From the IMG/VR virus record IMGVR_UViG_3300037307_000307: a DNA stretch of 64,000 nt. One strand, 5' to 3'. Each line of letters starts with the position of its first letter. Position 1 is the first letter of the stretch. The DNA comes from a virus (taxonomy: Duplodnaviria; Heunggongvirae; Uroviricota; Caudoviricetes). Below the pieces are notes generated by a model, which saw only the letters and a program-made list of their open reading frames with translations, had not been told where the DNA came from and did no database searches. Position numbers and translations under genes: made by a program. This document shows, piece after piece, positions 4,593-46,200 of this stretch.

Positions 4593-4952
4593 ATGAGTTA
4601 TAAAAAATACGGAATAAGCTTTGAGAAAAAAATTCATAACGGATGGGAAGAGCATCAACGTTTATTGAAAAGTAAAGACCCGAAAGCGATTACTTATGTG
4701 AAAATGTTAAAAAGTAATAGTTTCGGTCATCCTCATCCAATGGGATATTTCTATAAATGGCACTATGTTTTTACATCAAAGAAGGGAACTGTGTCTTTAA
4801 TAAAATTATTAGATTACCATCGGACCGGTGAGCATATCTGGGAGATTTTAATAGGAGATTGTAAAGATGGTAATATTGAAAGGTTTTATAAACATGAAGA
4901 TGCTTCTAAAAGAATAATAGAGATATTGAGGAATGATAGAGATGAAAAATAA
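4593..4952 (+). CDS. hypothetical protein
   Basis: 119-aa ORF, tightly coupled to neighbours. Confidence 0.4.
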   Translation: MSYKKYGISFEKKIHNGWEEHQRLLKSKDPKAITYVKMLKSNSFGHPHPMGYFYKWHYVFTSKKGTVSLIKLLDYHRTGEHIWEILIGDCKDGNIERFYKHEDASKRIIEILRNDRDEK

Positions 4953-5622
4953 AAAAGCCGAATTAAACCCGATAGCAATTGTTGTTATTATAGTATTTCT
5001 TGGTTTGATAGTGTTCTTTGCAATAAAATACGCTACATCAGAAGATGAAACTGAATTAAATGTTACTAAAATAAATGGTTCAATTTCTTCAACTGCAACT
5101 AAATATGTAAATCCTTCAACGGGAGCGGTTAATATCACTGGCGGAAAAGATTTGACAGTAAAAAGTATTGATGATATAAATTACACATTAGACCCAACGA
5201 ATAAATCTCAAGTTCTTGTTAGAGTTGTATATCCTAATAGTTCTATGACTCCGGGAGATATAATGTCTTCAAATGTAACTGAGATATGTGTGAGTGGATA
5301 TTCTGATAGTGTAAGAAGTGTCTCGGATTCATTAAGAACGCAAGTTTATGAACAATACAAATTATCTCCAGACCAACCCGAAGGAACATTTGAAGTCGAC
5401 CATTTGATACCTTTATCAATCGGTGGAAGTAACGATATTAAGAATCTATGGCCTCAGCCTAGAGACCCTAGACCTGGATATAAAGAGAAAGATGTTTTAG
5501 AGAATTATTATCATAGACAAGTATGTGCCGGTAAAATGGATTTAAGAGAGGCGCAGGCTATGATGGCACAGAATTGGTTCCAAGGATATGTAAATGCTAG
5601 AGCCGAAGGTGGAATAAAATGA
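4933..5622 (+). CDS. membrane-anchored HNH-family nuclease with sequon-rich extracytoplasmic region
   Basis: N-terminal TM IAIVVIIVFLGLIVFFAI; motif FEVDHLIPLSIGGSNDIKNLWPQP (DH..P..GG.N..NL = HNH core) and VCAGK; many N-x-T/S. Confidence 0.5.
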   Translation: MIEMKNKKAELNPIAIVVIIVFLGLIVFFAIKYATSEDETELNVTKINGSISSTATKYVNPSTGAVNITGGKDLTVKSIDDINYTLDPTNKSQVLVRVVYPNSSMTPGDIMSSNVTEICVSGYSDSVRSVSDSLRTQVYEQYKLSPDQPEGTFEVDHLIPLSIGGSNDIKNLWPQPRDPRPGYKEKDVLENYYHRQVCAGKMDLREAQAMMAQNWFQGYVNARAEGGIK

Positions 5623-7752: not shown

Positions 7753-10700
7753 TCAGCATGATACTAGTTGCACTCCTGCCTTTAGATTAATTTCTGACTG
7801 TAATTTCTGTATTGTACAAGTTACTGAATCAGCAAATTGTGTTAATATATTCGAACTTATTGTTCCATCATACTGCCAAACAGCGTCTCCTAATTCTTGT
7901 ATACTTTCATTTGATAAAGTCAAATTAGCAGTTGGATAATAAGTTAATTCTCTTGTTGAATAACTCCATACATCACTTGCAGTTATATCATTCCCATTAT
8001 CAGTTAATGTTCTAGTTGTTGCATTCCATACTGAAGTTGGTATAGAAGAATAATCATTCTGATAAACATGGAAGTCATTTAAGCTGAAGTATTTTCTATC
8101 TTCAACTATACAATTTGTATAATAAGCATATATTCCAAGTTGTGCCGGAACTGTAAAGTCATAGATATATGCACCATCTCCTATCTCAGTCATTGACTGA
8201 TTAAATATGAATGTAGTTGAATTTGGATATAATAAAGTTACAGTACAATTCGCTCCTGTTTCAACTTCTGCTAATGCACCAGTACCTTTAACCAATCTAA
8301 TTGCTATTTTACCTGCATCTCCATCAAGATATTCAGTACCTCCAACATATGTGTGTCCTATATTTGCAATATCTTCAACTGTACTTACATTTTGAGTAGT
8401 TCCAGTTGTTGCGAAATCAACTGTTTTATTTGAATAACTCCATACAGCATTCGCAACATCGCTATTATTTACGGTAGCTTCAACTGTGAAATTGAAATCA
8501 GTCAGTGTTCTAACCGCATTGGTCCACACTACTTCTTGTATCAAAGTATAATTTGTAAGGTCTGCCCATTCAGGATAATAACTTAATGTTCTATTTGTTG
8601 AGGCCCATACCGCATCAGCAATAGCCGTTGTATTTACATCAATTGTAAAGTTAAATTCAGTAAGAGTTCTTTGTGTTGCATTCCAAACCATATCAGATAT
8701 TAAAGTATAATTCACGACATTATCTAATTGTGTTTGGTTTACATTCACTGTGAAGTCAAAGCTTGTCAATGTTCTGTTTGTAGCTTCCCATACAACTTGT
8801 TGTATCAAAGTGTAGTTGGTTAAGTCATATTGATTTGGATATTCAGTTAATGTTCTATTTACAGAAGTCCATACTGCTTCTGCAATTGCAGTGTTGTTTA
8901 CATTAACATCAAATCCAAATTCAGTCAAACTTCTATTAGTTGCATCCCATACCATTTCTTGTATCAATGTGTAATTGATTGGAGTCGAGTAATTGGAAAC
9001 TATATTTTCTATTTCAGTATAGTTAGTTTGGTCACCGAAGTTCTCGTAGTAAGTCAAGTTTCTATCTGTTGCGTTCCACACCATTTGTTGTATCTTATTA
9101 TAATCAGTCAAATCAGTTGGTGCTGTATGGTTGTAATCAGTAAGACTTCTATTCACAGCAGTCCAAACTGCATCAGCTATTGCTGTGTTATTAACTTCTG
9201 CATTCACGGTGAAGTTAAAGCTTGTTAATGTTCTATCAACCGCAGTCCATACTGCATTAGATATTTCTGTTTCATTTACATCAACTGTAAAGTCAAAGTC
9301 AGTTAATGTTCTATTCAAATTCTCCCATACAACTTGTTGTATCAAAGTATAATTAGTCATATCAATATGTTCATAGTATGTCAAGTTTCTATCTGAATAT
9401 AACCATACTCCGGCGGCAGTATCTTCAGCTATCTTGGTATAATTAGTCAAATCAACTTGTGCAGGATAGAATGTCAAGTTTCTATCTGTTGCATTCCATA
9501 CTCCAACTATTATTCTGTCATAATCAGTTACGTCTTCGGTGTAAGTTAAGTTTCTATTTCCAGCATTCCAGACTACATCAGCAATTTGTGAATAGTTTGT
9601 AAGGTCTATTTGTTGAGGATAGTAAGTCAAGTTTCTGTCTGTTGCATTCCAGACTCCTCCAACTACATTCTCTGTTATTTCAGTGTAGTTAGTTAAATCA
9701 ACTTGTGCAGGATAGTATGTAAGATTTCTTGTAGTTGCATTCCATACTCCAACTATTATTTCAGTATAATTAGTCATATCAATATGTTCATAATATGTAA
9801 GGTTTCTACTTGCAGCATTCCAAACATAATCTGCTATTTGAGTGTAGTTAGTTAAATCAACTTGTGCAGGATAGTATGTAAGATTTCTATCAGTTACGTT
9901 CCATACAGCTTGAGATGTTCCTTCAATTATTAATGTGTAATTAGTCTGGTCTACCTGTGCTGGATAGTAAGTCAAGTTTCTATCAGTGTTATTCCATACT
10001 CCGACTATTATTCTGTCATAATCAGTTACGTCTTGGTAGAATGTAAGATTTCTATCAGTTCTTGTCCAAACATAATCTCCAACCAAAGTATAATTAGTTA
10101 GGTCTATTTGTTGAGGATAGTAAGTCAAGTTTCTTATTGCTGCATTCCACACTGATTCTGCAACTTGTGTATAATTGGTCAAATCAATTTGTTCATAGTA
10201 AGTTAAGTTTCTATCGGGCGCTGTCCATACTGCTGTTGCGATTTGGTCAAGAAGATTTACAGAGATTGTTGCAGTTGAGCCCCAAACTGTTTCGGCCAAG
10301 AATGTATAATTTGTGACATCAGCATAGAATGTAAGACTTCTATTTGACGCGCTCCAAACTGTGTCAGATATTAATGTATAATTTGTAAGGTCTACTTGAG
10401 CAGGATAGAATGTCAAGTTTCTATCTGTTGCGTTCCAGACACCTACAATTATTTGATTATAATCAGTTACATCTTGATAATAAGTTAAGTTTCTGTTGGC
10501 TGCATTCCAGACTACTTCAGCAACTTGCGAGTAATTTGTTAAATCCATTTGTTGAGGATAATATGTTAAATTTCTATCAGTTGCGTTCCACACAGCGTTT
10601 GCTGTTTCGCCAATTATAAGAGAGTAATTTGTTAAATCAACTTGTGCAGGATAGTATGTAAGATTTCTTGTAGTTGCATTCCATACACCAAGAATGATTC

Positions 10701-13086
10701 TATCATAATCTGTTTGGTCTCCAAAGTTTTGATAATATGTTAAATTCCTGTCTGTGTAATTCCAAACAGCAGGAGGAACTTGATTGAAGTACAATTCAAG
10801 TAATGTGTAATTAGTTTGGTCTCCAAAGTTCTGATAATAAGTTAAGTTTCTATTTGCCGAGTTCCATACAGTTTCCGCAATTAAAGTATAGTTTGTAAGG
10901 TCAACTTGTGTTGGATAATATGTTAGATTTCTATCTGGTGCGGACCATATTGCAGCCGCGATTTGATTAAGAAGTCCGACTGATATTGTTGCAGATGAAG
11001 TCCAAACACTTTCTCCGACTAGAGTATAATTTGTAACATCGGCATAATAAGTTAAGTTTCTATCTGAATTATTCCACACAGCAGCGGCAACAGCTGAAGT
11101 ATCAATTGATGCGGTTATATTTGGATAAGCAGTTAAAGTTCTTGTTGGATAATTCCATGTTGCTCCTGGAATATTATTAACGTGAATTTCTCCTCCTCCT
11201 CTTATTTGATTTATCGGAACTTCAACAAAATTAATTTGGTCTAATCTAACTTGATTCAATCTCAGAGTTCCAGCTGTATAATGATTGGGGTCACTATCAT
11301 TATATCTTACAATCATATTTCCTCCGCTAACAAATGAAGATATATTTGTAAGGGCTGAACTTACAGTTCCATCTGAAACTACATTATAAGATAAACTGTT
11401 TGCTAATTTATACCATGAACTACCTGTGTAATTCCATAAATATACATCAACTAATTCTCCAAAATCACTCCAAGTATATCTTGTAACTATGTCCGCTTGA
11501 TGATATTCCGGTACAAGAGTTATTCCTGAAATAGTTGTGTTTACATCTAAATTATATTTAGGAGTACCACATTGTTTGTAAGTATTATAATTTGTTGCTA
11601 ATGTAGATGGAGAAGGACTTGCAAAATTTGCATCAGTTCCCTTAATATAACAAACTTCATCCATTACAGTATTCTCGATGTCATTTCCACCACCCAATAC
11701 TGCTCCAATTGTAAATCCATTTGAAAGAGTTAATGTTCCAGATTGAGTTTTCGCTTCATCTAATAATAAACTTCCATCTATATATAATCGCATTCTTGTA
11801 AAGTTTGCAAAACCGCAAACTGTATGAAATTGAGAATCTATATATGTTCCAGTTGTCTCTATTGTCTGAGCTCCTGTACCACTTCTATCAGAAACAAATC
11901 TAATATGATTTCCTCCATCATATGAAAATCTTATAACATCTCCAGATTCTGCTGAAATTAATCTATTACCATTAGCATTACTTGCAGATTGATTGAAACT
12001 AAAACAAACCATGTAAGCTTCATTTGAAGCTAAATTTAACTTAGTAGCTGCTGCAAAATTTGTATAATCATTAGTTCCAACTCCATATCTAACTCCTGCG
12101 CTTCCAACTTGTCCTGGAACTCCGATTGTTGGACTGTTGAAATGAGTACCTGTTGTTGGAGACGCACTTGAATCGAGAGTTGATGTTCCAGAATATTCAT
12201 CAAGATGGGCCATAAGTAAAGTTGTAACATTTGAATGAGCACCTGTGTTTGAGTTCTTTTCAACTATTGTGAGATAATTAGAATCGATATTTGTCAGACT
12301 TGCACCAGTTCCATTAACATACCAACCGTATGTTAAAGCGTATGCTGAGGCATTCGTGCTTGTTGTTAAAGTGTAATATTCGCAAAAGATTTCAGTCATA
12401 TAAACACCAAGTGAAGAAGGAGCTGTAAAATCATAATAATATAATCCTGTACTTCCAGTTTGATAAGTCATAATAGATTCATCAACCCATTTAACTCCAT
12501 TTGGATAATAAACTGAAATATAACAAGAAGCATTGTTTATCGGAGTTAATTGATTTTCTAAAAGTTGAACGAAAACTTTACCATTATCTCCAATGGTATA
12601 TTCAGTTCCGAAGATATCTATTTTCTTAGCAGCTTTGTTCATATATGTTAAATCAAGCCAAGCTGTTGTTGAACCTATATTACCACCAGAAACTGAAATT
12701 TTAACTTCATATGTTCCTGTTCGAGTTATTCTATTAGAACAATCAAAATAAACGGTTGATTTACCAGCGCCGGAATAAGTTGTTGAAACTGTATATGTTG
12801 GGTTGTTACAAGTTTGATTATTAATTAAAACAGTAAATGTTCTGGTAGGATTAATATAAGCATCTATAACTATTATAGCGGAACTAACTTGACTAATACC
12901 GTCTGGAGGATTAACTGTTAAATTATAAGAATAGTTAAGATTTTGAGTTAAAGATGGTTGATAAAATGGGCTAAGAAATATTTTATTAAATTGTTGGGTT
13001 TGTTGTTCTGCACTAACAAATGACGTGAAACTAATAAATAATATCAGAAACATCACCGATACTATTATTTTCATTTTATTTTTCAT
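7753..13086 (-). CDS. giant (1777 aa) secreted repeat protein with N-terminal LamG/ConA-like domain and about 35 tandem 22-aa NLTYY repeats
   Basis: SD AAGGAGAT 12 nt upstream; signal peptide ...FTSFVSA|EQ; jelly-roll-like segment MVCFSFNQSASNANGNRLISAESGDVIRFSYDGGNHIRF...MRLYIDGSLLLD; repeat VWNATDRNLTYYPAQVDLTNYT. Confidence 0.7.
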   Translation of the reverse strand: MKNKMKIIVSVMFLILFISFTSFVSAEQQTQQFNKIFLSPFYQPSLTQNLNYSYNLTVNPPDGISQVSSAIIVIDAYINPTRTFTVLINNQTCNNPTYTVSTTYSGAGKSTVYFDCSNRITRTGTYEVKISVSGGNIGSTTAWLDLTYMNKAAKKIDIFGTEYTIGDNGKVFVQLLENQLTPINNASCYISVYYPNGVKWVDESIMTYQTGSTGLYYYDFTAPSSLGVYMTEIFCEYYTLTTSTNASAYALTYGWYVNGTGASLTNIDSNYLTIVEKNSNTGAHSNVTTLLMAHLDEYSGTSTLDSSASPTTGTHFNSPTIGVPGQVGSAGVRYGVGTNDYTNFAAATKLNLASNEAYMVCFSFNQSASNANGNRLISAESGDVIRFSYDGGNHIRFVSDRSGTGAQTIETTGTYIDSQFHTVCGFANFTRMRLYIDGSLLLDEAKTQSGTLTLSNGFTIGAVLGGGNDIENTVMDEVCYIKGTDANFASPSPSTLATNYNTYKQCGTPKYNLDVNTTISGITLVPEYHQADIVTRYTWSDFGELVDVYLWNYTGSSWYKLANSLSYNVVSDGTVSSALTNISSFVSGGNMIVRYNDSDPNHYTAGTLRLNQVRLDQINFVEVPINQIRGGGEIHVNNIPGATWNYPTRTLTAYPNITASIDTSAVAAAVWNNSDRNLTYYADVTNYTLVGESVWTSSATISVGLLNQIAAAIWSAPDRNLTYYPTQVDLTNYTLIAETVWNSANRNLTYYQNFGDQTNYTLLELYFNQVPPAVWNYTDRNLTYYQNFGDQTDYDRIILGVWNATTRNLTYYPAQVDLTNYSLIIGETANAVWNATDRNLTYYPQQMDLTNYSQVAEVVWNAANRNLTYYQDVTDYNQIIVGVWNATDRNLTFYPAQVDLTNYTLISDTVWSASNRSLTFYADVTNYTFLAETVWGSTATISVNLLDQIATAVWTAPDRNLTYYEQIDLTNYTQVAESVWNAAIRNLTYYPQQIDLTNYTLVGDYVWTRTDRNLTFYQDVTDYDRIIVGVWNNTDRNLTYYPAQVDQTNYTLIIEGTSQAVWNVTDRNLTYYPAQVDLTNYTQIADYVWNAASRNLTYYEHIDMTNYTEIIVGVWNATTRNLTYYPAQVDLTNYTEITENVVGGVWNATDRNLTYYPQQIDLTNYSQIADVVWNAGNRNLTYTEDVTDYDRIIVGVWNATDRNLTFYPAQVDLTNYTKIAEDTAAGVWLYSDRNLTYYEHIDMTNYTLIQQVVWENLNRTLTDFDFTVDVNETEISNAVWTAVDRTLTSFNFTVNAEVNNTAIADAVWTAVNRSLTDYNHTAPTDLTDYNKIQQMVWNATDRNLTYYENFGDQTNYTEIENIVSNYSTPINYTLIQEMVWDATNRSLTEFGFDVNVNNTAIAEAVWTSVNRTLTEYPNQYDLTNYTLIQQVVWEATNRTLTSFDFTVNVNQTQLDNVVNYTLISDMVWNATQRTLTEFNFTIDVNTTAIADAVWASTNRTLSYYPEWADLTNYTLIQEVVWTNAVRTLTDFNFTVEATVNNSDVANAVWSYSNKTVDFATTGTTQNVSTVEDIANIGHTYVGGTEYLDGDAGKIAIRLVKGTGALAEVETGANCTVTLLYPNSTTFIFNQSMTEIGDGAYIYDFTVPAQLGIYAYYTNCIVEDRKYFSLNDFHVYQNDYSSIPTSVWNATTRTLTDNGNDITASDVWSYSTRELTYYPTANLTLSNESIQELGDAVWQYDGTISSNILTQFADSVTCTIQKLQSEINLKAGVQLVSC
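8500..11100 (-). repeat. intragenic tandem repeats (~66 nt, 22 aa) within CDS 7753..13086
   Basis: Periodic recurrence of ...gttccatac...aagtttctatc... on + strand corresponding to VWN(A/T)xxRNLTYY units. Confidence 0.6.
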
Positions 13087-13610: not shown

Positions 13611-13682
13611 GAGTCTATAGTTTAATGGCAAAAATATCTCTCTTGTAAAGAGATGATTCCAGTTCAATTCTGGGTAGACTCT
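13611..13682 (+). tRNA. tRNA-Tyr (anticodon GTA)
   Basis: Acceptor GAGTCTA/TAGACTC 7 bp, U8, anticodon stem CTCTC/GAGAG with loop TTGTAAA, T-arm CCAG-TTCAATT-CTGG. Confidence 0.6.
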
Positions 13683-13684
13683 TC

Positions 13685-13755
13685 GGGGTGTTAAGATAAT
13701 GGCAGTCTCCGCCGTTTGGAACGGCGTTGCCCTGGTTCGATTCCAGGATATCCCA
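13685..13755 (+). tRNA. tRNA-Pro (anticodon TGG)
   Basis: Acceptor GGGGTGT/ATATCCC with 2 G-U pairs, anticodon stem CGCCG/CGGCG loop TTTGGAA, T-arm CCTGG-TTCGATT-CCAGG. Confidence 0.55.
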
Positions 13756-13757
13756 TC

Positions 13758-13824
13758 GGGTTGAGGACAGGAGAGTAAGGCGCGACTCGGCGCTGTGGGC
13801 TCCGCGAGTCTTGGCTTCAACCCA
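13758..13824 (+). other. tRNA-like 67-nt element (acceptor-like GGGTTGA...TCAACCC) lacking a canonical T-arm; possible tRNA remnant or atypical structured RNA
   Basis: Perfect 7-bp terminal complement, internal GACTCG...CGAGTC hairpin, GC-rich, sits between tRNA-Pro and tRNA-Gln. Confidence 0.2.
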
Positions 13825-13826
13825 AT

Positions 13827-13899
13827 AGCCTTGTAGTCTAGCGGCCAAGGACTGCGGACTTTGACTCCGCGAACCCAGGTTCGAATCCTGGCGAGGCTA
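13827..13899 (+). tRNA. tRNA-Gln (anticodon TTG)
   Basis: Acceptor AGCCTTG/CGAGGCT, anticodon stem GCGGA/TCCGC loop CTTTGAC, T-arm CAGG-TTCGAAT-CCTG. Confidence 0.6.
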
Positions 13900-13911
13900 T
13901 CGGCTCATAAG

Positions 13912-15653: not shown

Positions 15654-15929
15654 ATGACTATGACAACAAATGATGAATCAAAACAAATAGACCAGAATCT
15701 CCGTTCTACTAAAGACACTTTACAATATTATAAAGATGCTAATAAAATTGTTCACATTGTTTTGAAGAATAGAAGATTTTACAATGGCTCTATATTGGAT
15801 ATTAGAGATTACATTTTAATTTTTCAAGATAATAAAATAGGTGAGGTTCCGATTCCTATTAAGGACGTTTACCTGGTCGAAATCTTCCAAGAACCCAATA
15901 GGGGCGGTGAAGAGGATGGAGACAATTAA
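15654..15929 (+). CDS. hypothetical protein
   Basis: 91-aa ORF ending 14 nt inside the next gene. Confidence 0.35.
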   Translation: MTMTTNDESKQIDQNLRSTKDTLQYYKDANKIVHIVLKNRRFYNGSILDIRDYILIFQDNKIGEVPIPIKDVYLVEIFQEPNRGGEEDGDN

Positions 15930-18708
15930 GAATTCATATCGCATCACTAAAGAAGAAAGAGATAAGATAAATAGTTTAGAAGATATTAAAAAAGATGATT
16001 ATATTTACGAGATATGTAAAAGAGAAGGAACGACATATACAAAAATTCTAGCACAATTACAAGAACCACAAGAGCTTATTGAAAAAGAGAAAATTGAAGA
16101 AGATAGAAAAGAAGAGTCTGAACATGAAATAGATATTGAAGATTTGCAACCAGTTGATTATGATAAAAGAACTTTGAAGGTAAATATACTCGACATATTT
16201 AAACCAGGAGTAGATGATATGACTTTAACTTCTAGCGGAAATTATAAAATGATATGTCCTGATTGTGGTTTACAAGGCGGAAGAACTGAAGGTTTTATTG
16301 TATATCCTGAATCTAATCAAGCTTCTTGTCACTCATCTGGAAAATGGTTTAAAGTTTTAGAAGCCTATGCTTTGAAAAAGAAATTGATTAGATGTTTAGA
16401 TGGAAGAGAACCAGGTGAAAAAGATAAAAAAGTTTTAGGTGGAGAATTATGGACGCAAACATTACTTGAATTCAAGGATGAATATGGTGTAGATAGATTT
16501 AATGATTTATGTGAAGATTGGGGAATTAAAAAAAGATTACAAATACCTGGTAAGTTCAGACTTCAATCAGCATTTGCCGATGATGCTGCAAAAATATTCT
16601 GTAGTAGAAATTTATTATTTTTAAGAGCTGAATCCGGAAATATAATAAAAATAAAAGTTACTAAAAAAGTTGATAAAGATAATGATGAAAAAATGCTTAC
16701 AATAGAGAGAGGAATTGAGGAATTAACTCCTGAAGAATTTGTGACTCTTTTAGAATTATATGTAGACCCTTATATGAAAACATATTACAAAGACGGAACA
16801 TTTCAAGAGGCTCCATATTCTATAAATAAGGAAACTGCTGGAATAACATTAGCTAGTCCTAATTTTAGATTTAAAATGCCTCCATTGGAAAGAATATTTG
16901 ATATTCAAATTCCGATTGTTCATAAAGGTAAATTAACATTTCCTAAGAAAGGATATGATAGAAGATTTGCAAGTTATCTTCCACCAAATGCTCCTAAAAT
17001 AAGGCCGAATGTATATACAGTTCAAGATGCAAAAGACTTCATTGAAGGAATATTTCAAGAATTTTGTTTTAAGGATAGAAAAGATTTCATGCACGCTCTT
17101 GCTGCATTCATAACTCCGTTCTGCAGAGGTTTATTCTCAAAGTTCTCTGTGAGAACTCCGGTATTTATCTATATGGCAAATAGAGAAAGAGCCGGTAAAG
17201 ATTATTTGGCCGGATGTACTGGTATGTTATATGAAGGAGTCGCGACAGAACAACCGCCAATATCAACAGATGAAAAGGGTGGATTTGGTAATAGTAACGA
17301 AGAATTGAGAAAGAAAATAACATCTTGTATGATTGAAGGGAAGAAAAGATTTCACTCTAGTAATAATAAAGGATTGTTAAATAATAGCGTACTAGAAAGC
17401 GCAACCACTTTGGATACATGGGAAGATAGAGTTCTTGGAAGAAATAAAACAATAAATTATCCAAATGAAATGGAATATAGTTTGTCTGGAAATATAGGTA
17501 TGAGTTTGACACCAGACCTTGTTAATAGAGCGAGAGTTATAGATTTAGAGTTGACCATAGAAGATGCTAATTCAAGAGTTTTTAAGAATCCAAGATTGCA
17601 CGCATGGATTCTTGATAATAGAGAAAGTATAATTTCTGCATTATATGCAATAGTCAAACACTGGTGGGAAAATGGGGCTAAACCTGGAAAGGTTCCTTTC
17701 ACTAGTTTTCCTGAATGGTCTGAAGTTGTTGGAGGAATAATGGAATCAGTTGGATGGGACAATCCTTGCACCAAAGATGAAGTTACAGTTATTGCGCTTG
17801 ACCAGGAAACTGATGAAATGAAAATATTGTTTGAAACAGCATATGAACAGAAACCAAATACATGGTTGAATCTTGGAGAATTGCAAGAGATAGTTGAAAA
17901 AGATGATATAATGCCGGATTTGGATTTAAAGAATAAGTCAGACCAGATAAAGTTTGGCAAATTAATTGCAAAATATGGTAATAGAATTCTATCTGATATT
18001 ACTATGTATGTTAAAGATAATAAACAAAGTCAAAGAAGAAAATACAAATTTAATAAGTCTCTACTGGCCCAAGAAGCTGATAAAGAAACTATAATTGATA
18101 AAGATAATAAAGAAAGTATAATTGATAAAAAGAATGAAGAAGTTAAAGAAAATTTGACAGAAAGTGAAAAAACTGACCAAAAAGTGCGCATGTTGCCCAT
18201 GTTTGCGCATGTTTCTACTCCGTCACATGATAGAAAATTGGAATTCATACCATACAGCGATACAAAAACATGCGCAGATATGCGCAACATGCGCACCCCC
18301 CTCACCCAGCCTGAAACATCAATTAAAACAACTATACTGAGCAAAGATGTTGTCCGGGAAGACTTGGAAAACATCCCCAAACATCCCCACCCCTCCACTT
18401 CCACTGGAAAGCCATTGGATTACTATACAAAGAAGATGGCTGTGGCCAAACAAGAAGAAATTGATAAAAGACTCAAAAAGGTCAGAAGCGAAAGAGAGCT
18501 CCAATTCTGGGAAGACCCACAGTGCGCAAGTATTGTAGCGCAATGTACAAGAGAGCAAACGCTTGAGTATGTTAAAGCCAATCCAAAGTCTTCCTATGAA
18601 AAGATTAGACTTGCACTTGGACTTGGAAGTTCAAAATGGCTGGTAGAACTTGCAAACGAAGGTTTAATAAAAAGAAACGATGATGAAAGTTGGGAGATAG
18701 TTATATAA
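15916..18708 (+). CDS. large replication protein, putative primase/helicase-like (zinc-binding N-region, degenerate P-loop-like region, C-terminal wH-like domain)
   Basis: ATG at 15916 (METIKNSY...) after ggtgaagagg; CPDCG...CHSSG zinc motif; VFIYMANRERAGKDYLAGCTG P-loop-like; stop overlaps PolB start (TAATG). Confidence 0.45.
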   Translation: METIKNSYRITKEERDKINSLEDIKKDDYIYEICKREGTTYTKILAQLQEPQELIEKEKIEEDRKEESEHEIDIEDLQPVDYDKRTLKVNILDIFKPGVDDMTLTSSGNYKMICPDCGLQGGRTEGFIVYPESNQASCHSSGKWFKVLEAYALKKKLIRCLDGREPGEKDKKVLGGELWTQTLLEFKDEYGVDRFNDLCEDWGIKKRLQIPGKFRLQSAFADDAAKIFCSRNLLFLRAESGNIIKIKVTKKVDKDNDEKMLTIERGIEELTPEEFVTLLELYVDPYMKTYYKDGTFQEAPYSINKETAGITLASPNFRFKMPPLERIFDIQIPIVHKGKLTFPKKGYDRRFASYLPPNAPKIRPNVYTVQDAKDFIEGIFQEFCFKDRKDFMHALAAFITPFCRGLFSKFSVRTPVFIYMANRERAGKDYLAGCTGMLYEGVATEQPPISTDEKGGFGNSNEELRKKITSCMIEGKKRFHSSNNKGLLNNSVLESATTLDTWEDRVLGRNKTINYPNEMEYSLSGNIGMSLTPDLVNRARVIDLELTIEDANSRVFKNPRLHAWILDNRESIISALYAIVKHWWENGAKPGKVPFTSFPEWSEVVGGIMESVGWDNPCTKDEVTVIALDQETDEMKILFETAYEQKPNTWLNLGELQEIVEKDDIMPDLDLKNKSDQIKFGKLIAKYGNRILSDITMYVKDNKQSQRRKYKFNKSLLAQEADKETIIDKDNKESIIDKKNEEVKENLTESEKTDQKVRMLPMFAHVSTPSHDRKLEFIPYSDTKTCADMRNMRTPLTQPETSIKTTILSKDVVREDLENIPKHPHPSTSTGKPLDYYTKKMAVAKQEEIDKRLKKVRSERELQFWEDPQCASIVAQCTREQTLEYVKANPKSSYEKIRLALGLGSSKWLVELANEGLIKRNDDESWEIVI
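18180..18300. promoter_or_regulatory. clustered GC-rich iteron-like repeats: 2x GCGCATGTT, then ~60 bp later inverted 2-3x (A)ACATGCGC(A)
   Basis: gtgcgcatgttgcccatgtttgcgcatgttt ... aacatgcgcagatatgcgcaacatgcgcac read directly inside the 3' part of the replication gene. Confidence 0.45.
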
Positions 18709-20549
18709 TGGCAAACTTTAATAAAAAATCCATATTAATTTATGATATCGAGACGGATTCTTTAGATATTCAAACCGCAAATATGAAATGGTTTGGAGCT
18801 TACAGTTATTTGAAAGATAAATATTATTGGTATCAATTTCCACAAGATAAGAAAGAAATTATAAGTTTGATAGAGAGTCATAAGGTTCTTGTAGGATTTA
18901 ACATAAAAGATTTCGATAATGAAATAATCGAAGCAAACCTTAAACTAGAGGAAAACATATTTGAGTATAAAGTTTTAGTCGACTTGTTAGAAATATCCGC
19001 TCCAAAGGCAGGTAAGAATTATGGAGCCCATAGAAAGAATAGATTGACTATGATGGGTTATAAGTTAAAAAATTATACTCTTAAAAATATAATAGAGCTT
19101 TTGAAATTGGATAAGGATATAGGAAGTAAAGGAGATATAGATTATAATATATTCAAGAAAGAAACGTTGACAAAAGAAGAAATAGATGAAATAATAAAAT
19201 ATCTCAAACAAGATATTGATTTAACAAAATTACTTTTTGAATGGTATGAAGAACAATATGAGCCATTAAAGAAACTTCTTCCTACAAAAGAACAAAACAA
19301 TTTCCTATATCTAAAATCAAGTTTAGCAGTTCTTGCTTATAATATAATATGTAATAAAGCAGGACTTCCTGTCGTATATACTGATAAAACAAAGAGTAAC
19401 GAATCTTATTCAGGAGGACATCATATTGAACCCGCCCATGAATTGGTTAAAGGTAATATAATAGAAGTAGATTTTACTAGTGCATATCCTCACGCAATTA
19501 TGATGGGTAATTTGTGTTCACCTGCAAAGGAAAATGAAAAATATTGGGATGGAAATAATTATTACAAACTTGATGGCAAATATAATAAAGACACACAAGG
19601 AAAAATTGAAACAGCTCTAAAGGAAATATTTCTTGAAAGATTGAAAGCTAAGAAAGAGAAAGACATTCCAAAAGATAAATCATATAAAATAGTTATCAAC
19701 AGTTTCTATGGTGCACTTGGTAATCCAGTATTCAAATCAATATATAATAGAAACAGTGCGTCTGACACAACTTCAATTGTTAGAACTTGGATGAAGAAAC
19801 TTGCTAAGAGTTTGGCTGAAGCAGGTTATGAATGTTTATACGGATTTACAGATTCTATCTTCATAAAAATACCAGATAAATTAAATAAAAAAGATGCTAT
19901 GAAAGAGATTGACTTATTCTTAAAAGAAGCTTTGGATAATATGCCTTTTCCAATGGATACTTTCAAAATGGGAATTGAAGAAGAAATTAAAATGATTTGG
20001 TTTGTAGCAAAGAACTGTTATTTGTTCGTAACTCAAGATGATAAGGTAAAATACAAATCTACTCTTTTGAATACAAATACTCCAGCGGCAGTTATGAAAT
20101 TGTTTGAAGAATATATGAAGCCTATAATTATACAGAAACTTGACATTCCTTTTACATATAAAGAACTTGAGCAACAATTAAAATTAGTTATTGAAAAAGA
20201 TATTTCTTTGGCAGCACAGGAACATAAAGTAACAGAACTGAGTGAATATAAATCTCACACATCTTTACAATATCAAATATCTGAAAAACATGGTGAAGGA
20301 AGACACTTATTAATACCTAACAGAAAAGGAGTTGGAGTCGGTCTTAGTAAACATACTAAAAAGAAAGCAGGAGTAAGACATTGCACTATAAAAGAATTCA
20401 AGGACAATAATCTAACAATATCAGATATTGATTTAACTCATCTTCTATCTCACCTCAAACCTTTCTATGAACGTAATGATGAAGCAAAGAAACAACAGAA
20501 AATACAAAGACAAACGTTGTTGCGAGAAATGCAAACAATATATGGATGA
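18708..20549 (+). CDS. polB: family-B DNA polymerase with 3'-5' exonuclease domain
   Basis: ExoI LIYDIETDS, ExoII FNIKDFDNEII, ExoIII YLKQDID; pol motif A DFTSAYPHAIM, motif B KIVINSFYGALGN, motif C YGFTDSIFI. Confidence 0.8.
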   Translation: MANFNKKSILIYDIETDSLDIQTANMKWFGAYSYLKDKYYWYQFPQDKKEIISLIESHKVLVGFNIKDFDNEIIEANLKLEENIFEYKVLVDLLEISAPKAGKNYGAHRKNRLTMMGYKLKNYTLKNIIELLKLDKDIGSKGDIDYNIFKKETLTKEEIDEIIKYLKQDIDLTKLLFEWYEEQYEPLKKLLPTKEQNNFLYLKSSLAVLAYNIICNKAGLPVVYTDKTKSNESYSGGHHIEPAHELVKGNIIEVDFTSAYPHAIMMGNLCSPAKENEKYWDGNNYYKLDGKYNKDTQGKIETALKEIFLERLKAKKEKDIPKDKSYKIVINSFYGALGNPVFKSIYNRNSASDTTSIVRTWMKKLAKSLAEAGYECLYGFTDSIFIKIPDKLNKKDAMKEIDLFLKEALDNMPFPMDTFKMGIEEEIKMIWFVAKNCYLFVTQDDKVKYKSTLLNTNTPAAVMKLFEEYMKPIIIQKLDIPFTYKELEQQLKLVIEKDISLAAQEHKVTELSEYKSHTSLQYQISEKHGEGRHLLIPNRKGVGVGLSKHTKKKAGVRHCTIKEFKDNNLTISDIDLTHLLSHLKPFYERNDEAKKQQKIQRQTLLREMQTIYG

Positions 20550-21806: not shown

Positions 21807-22160
21807 TTGAATCAAAGACAAAAAAGATATTTAGCACATAAGAAAGAAGAAAAAGAATATGCAAGAGAATATAGAAAAAACCATCCTTGGGTTAGATTTT
21901 ATACTAATGCAAAACAAAGATGTACAAATCCAAAAATAGAAACTTTCAAAAAATATGGTGCTAAAGGAATTAAATTTAATATGACTAGTGAAGATGTCAA
22001 AAAAATATGGATGAGGGACGAAGCACATAAATTAATAAGACCAAGTATTGATAGAATTGATTCAAAGAAAGGATATTCCTTAAATAATTGTCAATTCATT
22101 GAATTAAGTATTAACAGTTCTAAAAGAAAATATGGAGGTGGCCACTATTGGTATGTTTGA
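21807..22160 (+). CDS. phage-type HNH-associated endonuclease-like protein
   Basis: RCTNPKIETFKKYGAKGIKF ... SIDRIDSKKGYSLNNCQFI resembles the ..YG.RGI....sLDRID..g.Y.pgNcrw signature of small phage HNH homing-endonuclease relatives; TTG start in track. Confidence 0.45.
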   Translation: MNQRQKRYLAHKKEEKEYAREYRKNHPWVRFYTNAKQRCTNPKIETFKKYGAKGIKFNMTSEDVKKIWMRDEAHKLIRPSIDRIDSKKGYSLNNCQFIELSINSSKRKYGGGHYWYV

Positions 22161-23090: not shown

Positions 23091-24692
23091 TCAATTGGAT
23101 TTAGACATTCCATTTATAATTTGTTTTGCAACATAATGTGCACTTCCAAATATTATTATTCCTGGAATAACCGCAATTCCCGCCCCAACAAGTACTGCTG
23201 GAGCCAACAATGTAGATGATATCGTGGCAAGAGAACCAAATCCTAATGATTCAAGCATACTGGCTGCTTCGTGGGTTTTCTTTTCAATTCCTTTTTCAAG
23301 AGCATCTATTTGCATAACTATTTTTCCGTTTTGCCATATTCTAACTTTTTTATCTTCTTCTGAAGTTAGAAAAACTTTGTTTCCATTTAGAGAAGCAGTG
23401 TATGCTGCCGAATTACCTGTAATAAATATTTTATTTTTTCTTCTAGCTATAACTGTATTATTATTATTAGTTGTTGGACAGAATACTATTCCATTGTATT
23501 TTTTCTCCTTTATCTCATTTCTAAAAACGTTACATTCATTGAATCTATTAATATTTGTTTTATAATATCCTTTTGAATCAATATATGTATTTGAATTTCT
23601 ATTTAATAAGATACAAAGTGTTTTAAAAAAATCTAGTCTTTTTTTGTTTTGAGTTCTTATATCTCCTTCCCAATTTTTATTACGTTTGTGCCCATCTCCT
23701 AACATCATTGAATTATATATCTCTTGTAATTCCTCTCCTTTTAATTCAAATATAGAATGTTTAGGTGTTCTATCAATATTAATAAAATCAAAAATCCATT
23801 TAGAATCTTTTGAGAATATTCTAAATTTACAATATCTTTTTAATTTACCATCGTAAGGTGAAAGTTGATTATATATATTCTTTGAAAATGTTAAGCCACT
23901 GGATACCAAAGTATCTTCTATTATTTTACATTTGTTTTTATTTGCTGTAAAACTTTGAACTATTTCTATAGATTTATCTCTTTTACTAATATAAGCATCA
24001 GATAAAACCCATCCTAAAATAGAAGCTTTTATTTTCCCAATACTTTTACCATTTTTTTTAAAAGAAGATAATTTATGTTTTGTTTTAATTTTTTCGGATA
24101 TTTGATTATAAGGAATTAATTTGTAATTATTATAGATAATTTTTCTGGAGTCTCCTTTTCCAATTCTCTTTCCAATCTTAACGAGCCCTTTATGTTCATT
24201 TGTTACAATGAAATCTAAAAATCTATTTTTAATATGAAAAACCTTTTCATTGATTTTATCAATGAAAATATCTTTAATCTTATCTTCCTCTATAATATCT
24301 TTTTTTAAATTATAGTTTAAGATTATATCTCCTTTGTTCAAATCTTTATATCTCTTCCAACCTTTTATTGTCAATATTTCAGTATCAGAACTTAAACAAT
24401 GTCTTGTACCATATCCTGTAAGAGTTTGAACATTTTTAATATTCATTCCATATCCAATCATTTCTCCTTGAGGATTAACAATACAAGCACCGTCGAGTAA
24501 CGCAAGTGCTTCAGCTCTTCTTTCAGAACCAATTATATTAAACTTAACAACATCTTGAGGAAACAAAGGTTCATATTCAATCGGTTTGTCCATTAGAACA
24601 ATTAAACAACCTTTGTTATTCTTTGCTATTTTTAAGCAGATATCAATTAAAGTTTTTTCAATTTCATTTGTCATAGTATATGTAAATAACAT
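23091..24692 (-). CDS. diadenylate cyclase (DAC/DisA_N domain, c-di-AMP synthase-like) interrupted by an intein; C-terminal membrane anchor
   Basis: N-extein LLDGACIVNPQGEMIGYG...LTGYGTRH | C-extein SAAYTASLNGNKVFLTSEEDKKVRIWQNG matches the DGA and GTRHRAA...VSEETG DAC signatures; C-terminal TM LATISSTLLAPAVLVGAGIAVIPGIIIFG. Confidence 0.65.
   Translation of the reverse strand: MLFTYTMTNEIEKTLIDICLKIAKNNKGCLIVLMDKPIEYEPLFPQDVVKFNIIGSERRAEALALLDGACIVNPQGEMIGYGMNIKNVQTLTGYGTRHCLSSDTEILTIKGWKRYKDLNKGDIILNYNLKKDIIEEDKIKDIFIDKINEKVFHIKNRFLDFIVTNEHKGLVKIGKRIGKGDSRKIIYNNYKLIPYNQISEKIKTKHKLSSFKKNGKSIGKIKASILGWVLSDAYISKRDKSIEIVQSFTANKNKCKIIEDTLVSSGLTFSKNIYNQLSPYDGKLKRYCKFRIFSKDSKWIFDFINIDRTPKHSIFELKGEELQEIYNSMMLGDGHKRNKNWEGDIRTQNKKRLDFFKTLCILLNRNSNTYIDSKGYYKTNINRFNECNVFRNEIKEKKYNGIVFCPTTNNNNTVIARRKNKIFITGNSAAYTASLNGNKVFLTSEEDKKVRIWQNGKIVMQIDALEKGIEKKTHEAASMLESLGFGSLATISSTLLAPAVLVGAGIAVIPGIIIFGSAHYVAKQIINGMSKSN
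23412..24398 (-). mobile_element. intein (~329 aa) with LAGLIDADG-type homing-endonuclease motifs, inserted after GTRH of the DAC motif
   Basis: Block A CLSSDTEILTIKGW directly after extein His; LAGLIDADG-like ILGWVLSDAYISKRDKS and MMLGDGHKRNKNWEGD; ends ...IFITGN followed by +1 Ser. Confidence 0.55.
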
Positions 24693-43205: not shown

Positions 43206-46200
43206 TTAAGGATAGAAGAATTGCATTACATACCTACCAAGTACTAGGAATAATACAAGGAAGATTGTGTTCCATATCATCATTATTATGAAGTATTTCC
43301 AGATGTCAGCGACTGATTCACCATTTCTCATCTTCACTATGAAGAATCCTGTCGATGCCGCAAGTCCTATTAATAATATCATAGCCATCAATATCAATCC
43401 AACTTGTCTACTCAACAATGTAGACCTGACCTGTTGAGCAAATGTTAAATCAACTTGAGTTTGGTCATCTACTGTAGTTATTTGAGTATCGGTGAATATG
43501 CTGTTTCCATAGTCAGTAAGTACTCCAAATATTTCATAAGGATTGAATACTGTAACAGTTCCGTTGTTTACATATTGATTCACTGGCGTGACAACGCTTC
43601 CGGATGGATTTGTATAAACTGTCTTGTTAGAACCATCGTTTATATGTACTGTGCTTCCTCCGACAGTATTTCCTTGGTTATCTCTTGTAGTAATTGTTGT
43701 TGTCCATGACCTATACAATACCGAGCTTGAATCAACTGATTCAGTTCCACTATAAGTTGTATCGTGGAATGTATTTTGTTTAGATGATGATGTCAATACA
43801 ACTCCTCCAGTTCCAAGAGCACTTGAACTCATATAGTTGTTCGAGCTATTTGAATATCTAACTTCTCCTCCAGTAGTGCTTCCTATTGTTGTAAACTTGT
43901 TATAATCTGAATAAAGAAGAGTTATTATATCAGTAGTTGTTCCAGTGAAGTTTACATTTGTATAAGTCGACCCACTTGGTCCCCATACTTGTGAACCTGA
44001 ACTTCCACCAGGAGCTGGGCCAGTATGATTCTGATATATTCCATAAGTATTGCTTGAGAATAGAACATTATTCAAATTAGCAAATGTATTCGAAGCATCC
44101 ATTTGATAAGTATAACTTATCTTTACATTATTGTAAGTTTGGCTAGTTGTATTCAATATTGTTCCATTTGAAGTTACTGTGTAATTTCCAGTTCCAATAA
44201 GTGAACCAGTTGAATTGTAAACACTTAATATTACTGGGTTTCTGAAATGATAAGCATTCGACATTGCCAATCTATATGGATTAGATGAGTTTACTCTTCC
44301 AGTTTCATTTATAACTGTCAAAGTGGATTCTGAAGTCATATACAATCCATAAACATTATTAGCTATTGTATCATTACTCATTGTCAAAGAACCATGTTGC
44401 AAGAATATACCATAGAATCCATCAATCCAACTATTTCTGATATTTGTATTTCCTCCAGTTATTCTAACTCCAGTTCCATTTGAAGTTGAAGTATAAACAT
44501 TACAATTTATTATTTGTGTATTTGGATATGATGTTGCTATGCTTATTCCATTAGCTCCGGTTGTAATAGAATGTCCTTTACAATCTATTGTAACTCCAGA
44601 AGTCTTAACATCCAAGCATACACCAGTACTCTTGTTTAGGTCTCTAATCAATGAATAAGTTCCAGGGAATGAAAGTTCTTTACATATAGAAGTATTTCCT
44701 GCACCATATTCTTTGTAGACTAATCTAGTTGGTAGGTCAGTTCTATGGTCATAAATATCCCAAGCAGTAGCATTATATGTATAAGTTCCATCAGGTACTG
44801 TAAATGCATTATAGAAGTTTTGTACATAAGAACCAGAAGTTGCTGTATAATTCTGTGTTCCATACAATCTTATAGTGATGTTCTTTATATTTGGTTCAGA
44901 CAAACTTACATTTATTGGAATATAATTAGTTGTTACTCCTCCAGCATCTTCAGGTGTTGGCGAAGTATAAGTCATATTGATTGGGGCGTTTCCAGTTATA
45001 TGTATAACTCTTGAAATCTGTGAACTTATTCTTCCAACTTTATCATAAGCCAATGCAGTTATATTATATTCTCCATCTGCCAATCCAGTCCAATTATAGA
45101 ATGAAGAAACTGTTGGAGCCCCAATAGTAACATACTCATCGTTCAAGGTTAATTGGCCATAATTCAAACCACCAGGGAAGAATGATTGACTCAAATATCC
45201 AGTATCAATCCATTGAGAAGTTGCTTTATTCTTACACTCAAGTCTGTAATTTACACTTCCAGGTGATGTGAATTGCATTAAGTATTTGAATTCCATTGTC
45301 TTACTGGTAAGATTTATACAACTTTGATTAACTATAACTACGCTAGATATTCCTCCAGAACCACTTCCTCCTGGGCCTGATACTGATTGTCCTCCAACAA
45401 GATGCATTCTTATCTCATCGTTAGTTCCGGTATAACCCGAAACAGTGTAATTTGAATAAGCAGTGTAATTAGCAGTACTAGATAATGTAGCGTTTAATGT
45501 AGCATATGTTGTTGTGTTTCCAGGATAATAGATTCCGCTTTGGCCATCATAAGTCATTCCATTATTCACTGTCCAACCAGAAGTTGCAGTTGGAGAATAG
45601 AATAGATATCCAAGTACGAAGTTCTGTGTATTACTATATCCATTATTTCCTATATTCAATATTGTAAGATTTGGATAAGTATCTTGAACTGTGACATTGG
45701 CCCATAATGCAGTATAATCATAAGCAGTTGTTAAGTTGTTTGCTGCAGGTGTTGGATTAGTGAAGCTTATCACTGGAGTTATCAAGTCTATGAATATCAA
45801 TCTTGAAGTATTAGTGCACCAGTTGTAATTATCACAAGATGTTGCGACTATTGTATGATTTCCGTCTGATAAACCAGATAATGTTCCTGCTATTGTGAAA
45901 TTACTTCCTGAAGTTACAGGATAACTTGATGCGACAGCAGCGCCAGTTACATTATAAGCTATTATTGAAAGATTCTTCAAATTAGCATCATATGTTGTAA
46001 CATTGTAGACTATGTAACTTCTATTTTGATAAGACAAATCTCCATCACTATTTGGTATGAATGATATTGTTGGAACTACGCTATCAACAAAGAAAACAAC
46101 TTCTCCTTCTGATATTCTATTAGCCAAATCAGTATAAACCAATCTCCAAGTATTTGTTCCCTGTTCTGCTGCTAGATTACTTATTCTTACAGTTCCGTTC

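Follow-up and report, generated by a model that had tools for sequence, protein, structure and literature searches.

A convergent repeat array within the gene of a predicted SF3 helicase as a candidate replication origin of an uncultivated virus

The stretch of 64,000 nucleotides taken from IMG/VR virus record IMGVR_UViG_3300037307_000307 (Duplodnaviria; Heunggongvirae; Uroviricota; Caudoviricetes), referred to here in its full length as the window, carries on its plus strand a gene (15916–18708) for a protein of 930 residues, and the 3′ part of this gene contains a conspicuous inverted repeat built of short units. The open reading frame (ORF) and its translation give a product that is 100% identical to P0001, a protein encoded on a metagenome contig of 109,720 bp. 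From its N-terminus the protein comprises a Cys/His-rich segment (CxxC...CxH), the core of a superfamily 3 (SF3) helicase, an internal winged-helix-like domain (wH1), a disordered linker and, at the C-terminus, another winged-helix-like domain (wH2). The repeat lies in the DNA that encodes the linker. Because it is conserved in dozens of related elements and co-evolves with one residue of wH1, the array is most likely an origin onto which the helicase loads: we consider it probable that the element is a cis-acting iteron array for the protein that encodes it and serves as the origin of replication.

A repeat finder delimits the element as an imperfect inverted repeat of 31 nt (18184–18214 and 18266–18296), 90% complementary, with a spacer of 51 nt and a whole length of 113 nt. 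Each arm is composed of three units of about 9 bp that follow one another at 9–10 bp. The left arm (18184–18214, plus strand) holds the direct units TGCGCATGT (18185–18193), TGCCCATGT (18194–18202) and TGCGCATGT (18204–18212), and the right arm (18266–18296, minus strand) the inverted units ACATGCGCA (18268–18276), ATATGCGCA (18278–18286) and ACATGCGCA (18287–18295), while the spacer between them (18215–18265) encodes ...STPSHDRKLEFIPYSDTK.... The exact sequence GCGCATGTT occurs four times in the window, always within the element (plus strand at 18186 and 18205, minus strand at 18267 and 18286), and GCCCATGTT at 18195 is a copy with one mismatch. A preliminary description of this DNA had quoted the repeat sequence, which is present as given, and had read it as two direct copies followed by two to three inverted ones; the inverted arrangement stands, and the count is corrected to three plus three units. 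It had further judged a heptamer recurring five times within about 120 bp to be very unlikely by chance in a genome of 30% GC. The GC content of the window is closer to 0.33, and the judgement itself holds: the heptamer ATGCGCA/TGCGCAT is found five times in 18185–18295 and four times in the rest of the window, about 2.4 copies being expected window-wide, and the total of nine was reached in none of 100 shuffles of the window. By a simple match/mismatch score with a loop of 20–120 nt the inverted repeat scores 22, the maximum for the window, compared with top scores of 10–16 in 30 Markov-1 random sequences of 64 kb. The repeat is real and non-random. An exact-unit search of the window found no further copies of the element; a related unit, ACATCCCCA, is present as two direct copies oriented like the right arm at 18368–18389 (units 18371–18379 and 18381–18389), which may be accessory or vestigial sites.

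The AlphaFold2 model of the complete 930-residue protein, built with 60 homologues, has a mean predicted local distance difference test score (pLDDT) of 80.7. Foldseek searches of the Protein Data Bank (PDB) matched its core at E-values of 1e-7 to 1e-5 and a probability of 1.00 to the NrS-1 CTR, to vaccinia D5 and mpox E5 and to the PrimPol of African swine fever virus, the matches also including PriRep1 of a staphylococcal pathogenicity island (SaPI; 7pds) and the SaPI5 primase-helicase (7ola). Judged by this modelled fold, the protein is an SF3 (AAA+) helicase of the self-loading D5/NrS-1/SaPI-Rep kind. No Pfam family, an AEP prim-pol domain included, was found in the 930-residue protein, and a profile search of PDB sequences, among them the SaPI Rep chains, gave nothing at E <= 1. 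A Pfam scan of 60 family members produced only scattered weak matches (a CHC2 zinc finger in three and HTH_24 in two), precomputed annotations with PF09250, PF08800 or PF22548 exist in some distant relatives only, and the PHROG matches of the protein are family 19930, annotated ‘DNA polymerase/primase’, and two families of unknown function.

The conserved core ends with wH1 (17803–18063, plus strand; residues ~630–716), for which DSSP assigns three helices followed by a β-hairpin in both models, that of the whole protein and a separate one of residues 590–725. The Foldseek list for the separate fragment (E >= 0.05) is rich, its top entries included, in proteins that contain winged helices, such as ORC/Cdc6, LmrR, forkhead, Z-alpha and Fur. 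As these matches are weak, the winged-helix fold of wH1 is regarded as plausible rather than proven. The linker that follows (18067–18387, plus strand; residues 718–824) is modelled with a pLDDT below 50 and has no conserved alignment columns; the repeat element encodes residues 757–794 within it, so that the earlier view of the encoded peptide as a linker is confirmed by its disorder and hypervariability. Beyond it, wH2 (18415–18705, plus strand; residues 834–930, with the motif RELQFWE...) again shows three helices and a hairpin at a pLDDT of about 85–90. A tblastn comparison located wH2 in 21 of 80 metagenome loci.

These 80 homologous loci came from a metagenome scan, and arrays were counted in 58 non-redundant metagenome loci. 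A uniform array detector was run on the 500 nt after the core, with 680 windows of 500 nt from the same loci as controls. A convergent array of at least four units follows the core in 49 of the 58 loci, as against 6 of the 680 control windows, and one of at least five units in 44, as against none of the controls. In most loci with post-core sequence the strongest inverted repeat of the entire locus sits just downstream of the core. The typical anatomy is that of three plus-strand units 9 bp apart, a spacer of 42–92 nt and three minus-strand units, exemplified by L004 (plus at 5107, 5116 and 5125; minus at 5182, 5191 and 5200) and repeated in L007, L008, L014, L025, L029 and L056. The unit itself differs between lineages. 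The commonest form is TGGTAAY, with the variants TGGCAAC, TGGTAAG, TGGTAGT, TGGTACA and TGGAGGT, and the TGCGCAT of the window departs from the TGGTAAT of L014 in the three central bases only; the unit heptamer of each locus is nearly confined to its own element. The closest relative, L001 (68% identity), has a main array of GGCCATRT units and, about 230 nt upstream of it, a second complete convergent array of GGGGATGT/ACATCCCCA units (4854–4965), of which the window retains only the two direct ACATCCCCA copies, placed downstream of its array. Loci of the TGGTAAC type (L004, L007, L010, L029, L038, L048 and L071) carry at the ends of the spacer an extra inner inverted pair, approximately CCCCTAC...GTAGGGG, whose left copy encodes a recurrent (S/T)P motif; this pair is not evident in the window.

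The coding context of the array is as varied as its unit sequence. The array is in frame in about 33 loci, lies over the stop codon in three (L041, L060 and L077) and is intergenic, just past the stop, in about six (L035–L037, L039, L050 and L080). Where it is in frame it precedes unrelated C-termini, including wH2 of the RELQFWE type, Zn-ribbon tails (L030, L059 and L066), acidic tails and other domains; in L029 the helicase ORF runs on past the array into a tail. The linkers of relatives hold peptides with a three-residue period, for instance GNLGNLGNL followed by LPKLPTLP, which correspond to the 9-bp DNA repeats and their reverse complements. Since the array is kept in coding and in non-coding contexts, and together with unrelated C-terminal domains, the constraint acts on the DNA and not on the peptide, as had been suggested from the window alone and is now borne out by about 50 homologous loci with differing unit sequences. 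Units of the TGGTAAC type are common to all these contexts, and the binding partner must therefore be sought in the conserved part of the protein and not in its variable C-terminus. In the ancestral layout the array seems to have stood just 3′ of the gene, and some lineages, that of the window among them, would have acquired fusions by read-through.

The residue that points to this partner is Ile678 (codon 17947–17949, plus strand; SDQ-I-KFG), located where the third wH1 helix begins, in its first turns. In all 32 loci of the covariation table, residue 678 is threonine or serine where base 7 of the unit is C, and isoleucine, valine or arginine where this base is T, G or A. L009/L011, L012, L069 and L074 were left out of the table because the inverted-repeat detector chose AT-rich chance repeats there. 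Both traits change at least nine times on a neighbour-joining tree of the ATPase region and eight times on a tree built from the wH1 segment with column 678 masked, and the members of the close pairs L014/L016, L030/L071 and L018/L064 differ from each other in both the residue and the base. Among about 460 alignment columns, the maximum of mutual information, 1.0 bit, is attained by column 678 alone, and the runner-up (0.81 bit) is a hypervariable column with nine states. Simple linkage or block transfer is an unlikely cause of such a pattern, given the repeated joint switches and the single top column. An independent check was provided by 17 loci from genome bins, nine of which have the array, and the relationship between residue and base holds in seven of the eight that are informative. 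Taken together, the covariation is strong if indirect evidence that wH1 contacts the repeat units.

Thus wH1 (residues ~630–716), and not wH2, is the likely reader of the repeats. The preliminary description had named the C-terminal winged-helix domain as the one to be assayed for binding. The winged-helix-like domain at the extreme C-terminus (residues ~875–930) is not the likely reader, as relatives without this domain, or with another in its place, have TGGTAAC-type units too. An explanation was also sought in wH1 for the divergent centre of the window unit, in which CGC replaces GTA: the window and L001 share GKLIAKY in place of the usual GxKIDKF. This candidate was rejected, since it concerns one lineage only and is no more than an anecdote.

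On the reading that the array is an origin, the wH1 domains of several helicase subunits would dock on the units of each arm, and the opposite orientation of the arms would set two helicase assemblies face to face. The DNA would then open at one of two places, the spacer or the AT-rich stretch directly upstream of the left arm (17970–18180; 17–32% GC in 60-nt windows), the latter of which we take as a candidate unwinding region; most homologous loci are likewise AT-rich over the 100 nt that precede the left arm. The SF3 rings would load themselves without a separate loader, as SaPI Rep does, and the adjacent family B DNA polymerase (PolB) could extend primers after priming. Binding of the helicase inside its own gene might in addition damp expression of the 3′ part of the gene and of PolB. 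The gene for PolB (18708–20549, plus strand; Pfam DNA_pol_B and RNase_H_2) begins with an ATG that overlaps the helicase stop codon (TAATG), and PolB is the next gene after the helicase in 17 homologous loci as well; the two genes form a conserved replication module. As the gene of the window lineage reads through the putative origin into wH2, this DNA is translated as a disordered linker.

Several observations weigh against this interpretation. Binding by wH1 is deduced from covariation and origin firing by analogy with other systems. Both trees on which the trait changes were counted are simple neighbour-joining trees, one genome-bin locus (L085) breaks the relationship with a methionine at position 678 and CATTAAC units, and the Foldseek matches of the wH1 fragment are weak (E >= 0.05). 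The array was not detected in nine of the 58 metagenome loci, nor in eight of the 17 more distant genome-bin loci. An AT-rich centre like that of SaPI origins was looked for and not found, the spacer of the window having a GC content of 0.37 against 0.33 for the window, and the spacers of relatives (42–92 nt) are mostly GC-richer than their own locus. Finally, the cumulative GC skew of the window, which had been proposed as a check, has no minimum at the element. This skew climbs over plus-strand genes and falls over minus-strand ORFs, and because it simply tracks the coding strand it is not diagnostic of an origin here.

The alternative that survives best is that the array acts only as an autoregulatory operator or roadblock, at which the helicase or another factor throttles transcription of the 3′ part of the gene (wH2) and of PolB, and has no origin function. 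The covariation between residue and base demonstrates recognition and not replication. The element lies about 400 nt upstream of PolB within one transcription unit, a promoter-like match is found just upstream of it, and the GC skew is devoid of an origin signal. However, the protein is by its model a self-loading helicase of the initiator type whose known relatives use such repeats as origins, two convergent triplets some 100 bp across exceed the needs of a repressor operator, and the array is kept both in loci whose gene stops short of it and in loci with no PolB match after it. An operator without origin function therefore appears unlikely to us, the two functions not being mutually exclusive. 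The preliminary description had left the choice between origin iterons and autoregulatory operators undecided; the conserved architecture and the covariation uphold a protein-binding array, of which an origin is the best-supported function, its activity being deduced.

The functional form of the element could instead be a folded stem-loop or cruciform resembling the pRN1 origin, or a hairpin in the mRNA that pauses ribosomes or stabilizes the transcript, in place of duplex iterons that are read singly. As single-stranded DNA a region of 131 nt does fold into a stem of about 30 bp (–29.8 kcal/mol, z = –6.7), the pRN1 origin requires the integrity of its stem-loop, and the TGGTAAC-type loci possess the inner pair CCCCTAC...GTAGGGG. 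Against this, the 9-bp periodicity inside the arms, with its conserved 7-bp core, has no role in a plain stem, and one base of the unit changes in step with a residue of the protein. No selection for pairing of the arms was detected, mirrored units differing by 1.22 mismatches and non-mirrored ones by 1.37 (p = 0.28); this lack of extra similarity between mirrored units favours site arrays over a selected hairpin. A 30-bp stem in a translated region would also hamper translation. The search of Rfam returned as its sole match a sub-threshold generic miRNA hairpin, MIR837, at 33 bits compared with a gathering score of 117, and a known structured RNA family was rejected on this ground. A stem as the functional form is thus improbable, and the patterns in the units favour duplex binding sites, with which extrusion of a cruciform after protein binding would be compatible.

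The arms do look like terminal inverted repeats, the diverse C-terminal domains joined at this point are suggestive of a recombination junction and the linkers of relatives hold three-residue periodic peptides, but a miniature inverted-repeat transposable element (MITE), a recombination scar or repeats selected as peptide (GNxGNx... or LPxLPx...) are all very improbable origins of an element that keeps a fixed position in about 50 divergent loci and yet has lineage-specific units almost confined to it in each locus, that has no other copies in the window or in the homologous loci, whose right-arm peptide is merely the reverse complement of the left-arm DNA, which also occurs as non-coding DNA and whose 9/10-bp spacing in the window breaks any peptide periodicity. 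Terminal inverted repeats of a MITE or insertion sequence were likewise rejected, there being no copies at unrelated sites of the window and the position relative to the gene being fixed.

Comparison with known systems suggests, as the best reading by analogy, that the element works like a cis-acting origin of the SaPI or pRN1 type next to its own helicase gene, without belonging to those families. The SaPI helicase loads itself, and the winged-helix domain behind its ATPase binds short iterons that are found directly 3′ of rep as two oppositely oriented sets (PMC9371898). The present system shares with them an SF3 helicase fold, PriRep1 and SaPI5 being among the Foldseek matches, and the position of its three plus three convergent units directly after wH1. 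It differs in that no homology was detected at the sequence level (Pfam and PDB profile search), that its units have a 9-bp period with a core of about 7 bp whereas the SaPI unit measures 5–6 bp, and that the AT-rich DNA lies upstream of the left arm instead of in the centre. Furthermore the array is translated in frame and followed by a second winged-helix-like domain, and the replicon is an uncultivated one of about 110 kb with its own PolB, whereas a SaPI is an island of 15 kb.

In pRN1 a stem-loop of about 100 nt, positioned directly 3′ of ORF904, serves as the origin; this gene combines prim-pol, SF3 helicase and winged helix. The origin reportedly has no iteron structure and depends on an intact stem, and similar stem-loops are present in the Bordetella phages BIP-1 and BPP-1 (PMC4234260). 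Both systems have, immediately after the SF3/winged-helix replication core, a large inverted repeat of some 100 nt, which in several of the relatives described here is intergenic past the stop codon, and the model proposed is alike, with assembly of a double hexamer and melting at the repeat (PMC4234260). The arms differ from those of pRN1 in being periodic iteron triplets without extra conservation between arms, and the AEP prim-pol domain of ORF904 has no counterpart detected by Pfam in the window protein.

Origins embedded in the gene of their initiator are familiar from phage lambda, whose ori is located inside gene O. Its iterons have an AT-rich region beside them (PMC3017604). Both systems place iterons, those of the window being putative origin iterons, within the initiator coding sequence, at an interdomain linker and adjacent to AT-rich DNA. 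However, lambda has four tandem, partly symmetric iterons of 19 bp compared with two inverted triplets of units of about 9 bp here; O binds them with its N-terminal domain, and O is not a helicase and recruits the host DnaB via P, while the window protein is itself the predicted SF3 helicase. A last parallel is the alpha protein of P4 (primase, SF3 helicase and C-terminal winged helix), whose winged-helix domain binds short repeats in both orientations (summarized in PMC4234260). The likeness consists in a multifunctional SF3 initiator with iterons, those of ori and crr, in both orientations, and the Toprim primase domain of P4 is a difference. In P4, several kb of DNA separate ori from crr, and neither of the two is contained in the end of the alpha gene.

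A wider proposal can be made only tentatively, and as a whole we regard it as rather doubtful. The window would belong to a widespread and undescribed family of replicons, relatives of which are binned mostly with DPANN archaea, in which an origin of three plus three convergent iterons is fused to the end of the gene for an SF3 initiator-helicase and has repeatedly been absorbed into its reading frame. One stretch of DNA would thereby combine the roles of origin, of binding site of the initiator and of coding sequence for a disordered tether to exchangeable C-terminal domains, with specificity set at residue 678 by a rule pairing T/S with C and I/V with T/G. If this were true, the specificity of an origin could be predicted and re-engineered from one residue and one base, and an initiator that bound within its own message would tie the start of replication to the expression of PolB and of the domain encoded downstream. 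One amino acid that tracks one base through at least eight independent switches would in any case be a rare and testable rule of initiator recognition, of use in matching origins to helicases in metagenomes and in the design of orthogonal replicons. The array likewise offers a testable candidate origin for uncultivated mobile elements or viruses that form a large family, with 213 relatives in metagenomes, 305 protein matches and no cultured member, Pfam family or solved structure. The logic of SaPI and pRN1 appears to reach well past staphylococci and Sulfolobus plasmids, and an origin, if the array is one, can be translated as a disordered linker that marks the fusion point for different C-terminal domains.

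Literature searches retrieved no description of this helicase family or of its array. A scan of IMG/VR with the protein alignment gave no confirmed relative and so no viral context, and cultured phages yielded only remote matches limited to the core (<=31% identity), in phages of Caulobacter, Ruegeria and Akkermansia, which were of no help for the array. The genome-bin relatives (L081–L097) fall mostly in DPANN bins (Woesearchaeota, Nanoarchaeia, Aenigmatarchaeota and Micrarchaeota), with a few in Verrucomicrobiota. The host may be an archaeon; binning of mobile DNA is unreliable.

Some further features of the surroundings may be recorded. Within the AT-rich stretch upstream of the left arm, two tandem direct repeats of 27 bp (18074–18127), 89% identical, encode DKETIID and DKESIID, and a sigma-70-like promoter match (11 of 12 positions; 18095–18122) overlaps them. 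A small ORF for an HNH endonuclease (21807–22160, plus strand) lies some 1.3 kb past the PolB gene, and the minus strand has an ORF of 533 residues (23091–24692) whose partial PHROG match (E 3e-9) is to thymidylate synthase. Upstream of the helicase gene are an ORF of 1777 residues (7753–13086, minus strand), with no match in Pfam or PHROG, and three clustered genes for the tRNAs Thr-TGT, Pro-TGG and Gln-TTG (13611–13901, plus strand). About 30% of the window is taken up by a single minus-strand ORF of 6546 residues (43206–62846) with Laminin_G_3/ConA-like lectin, DUF2341, Hint/PT-HINT and Ig-like domains, the predicted product of which looks like a giant surface or adhesin-type protein.

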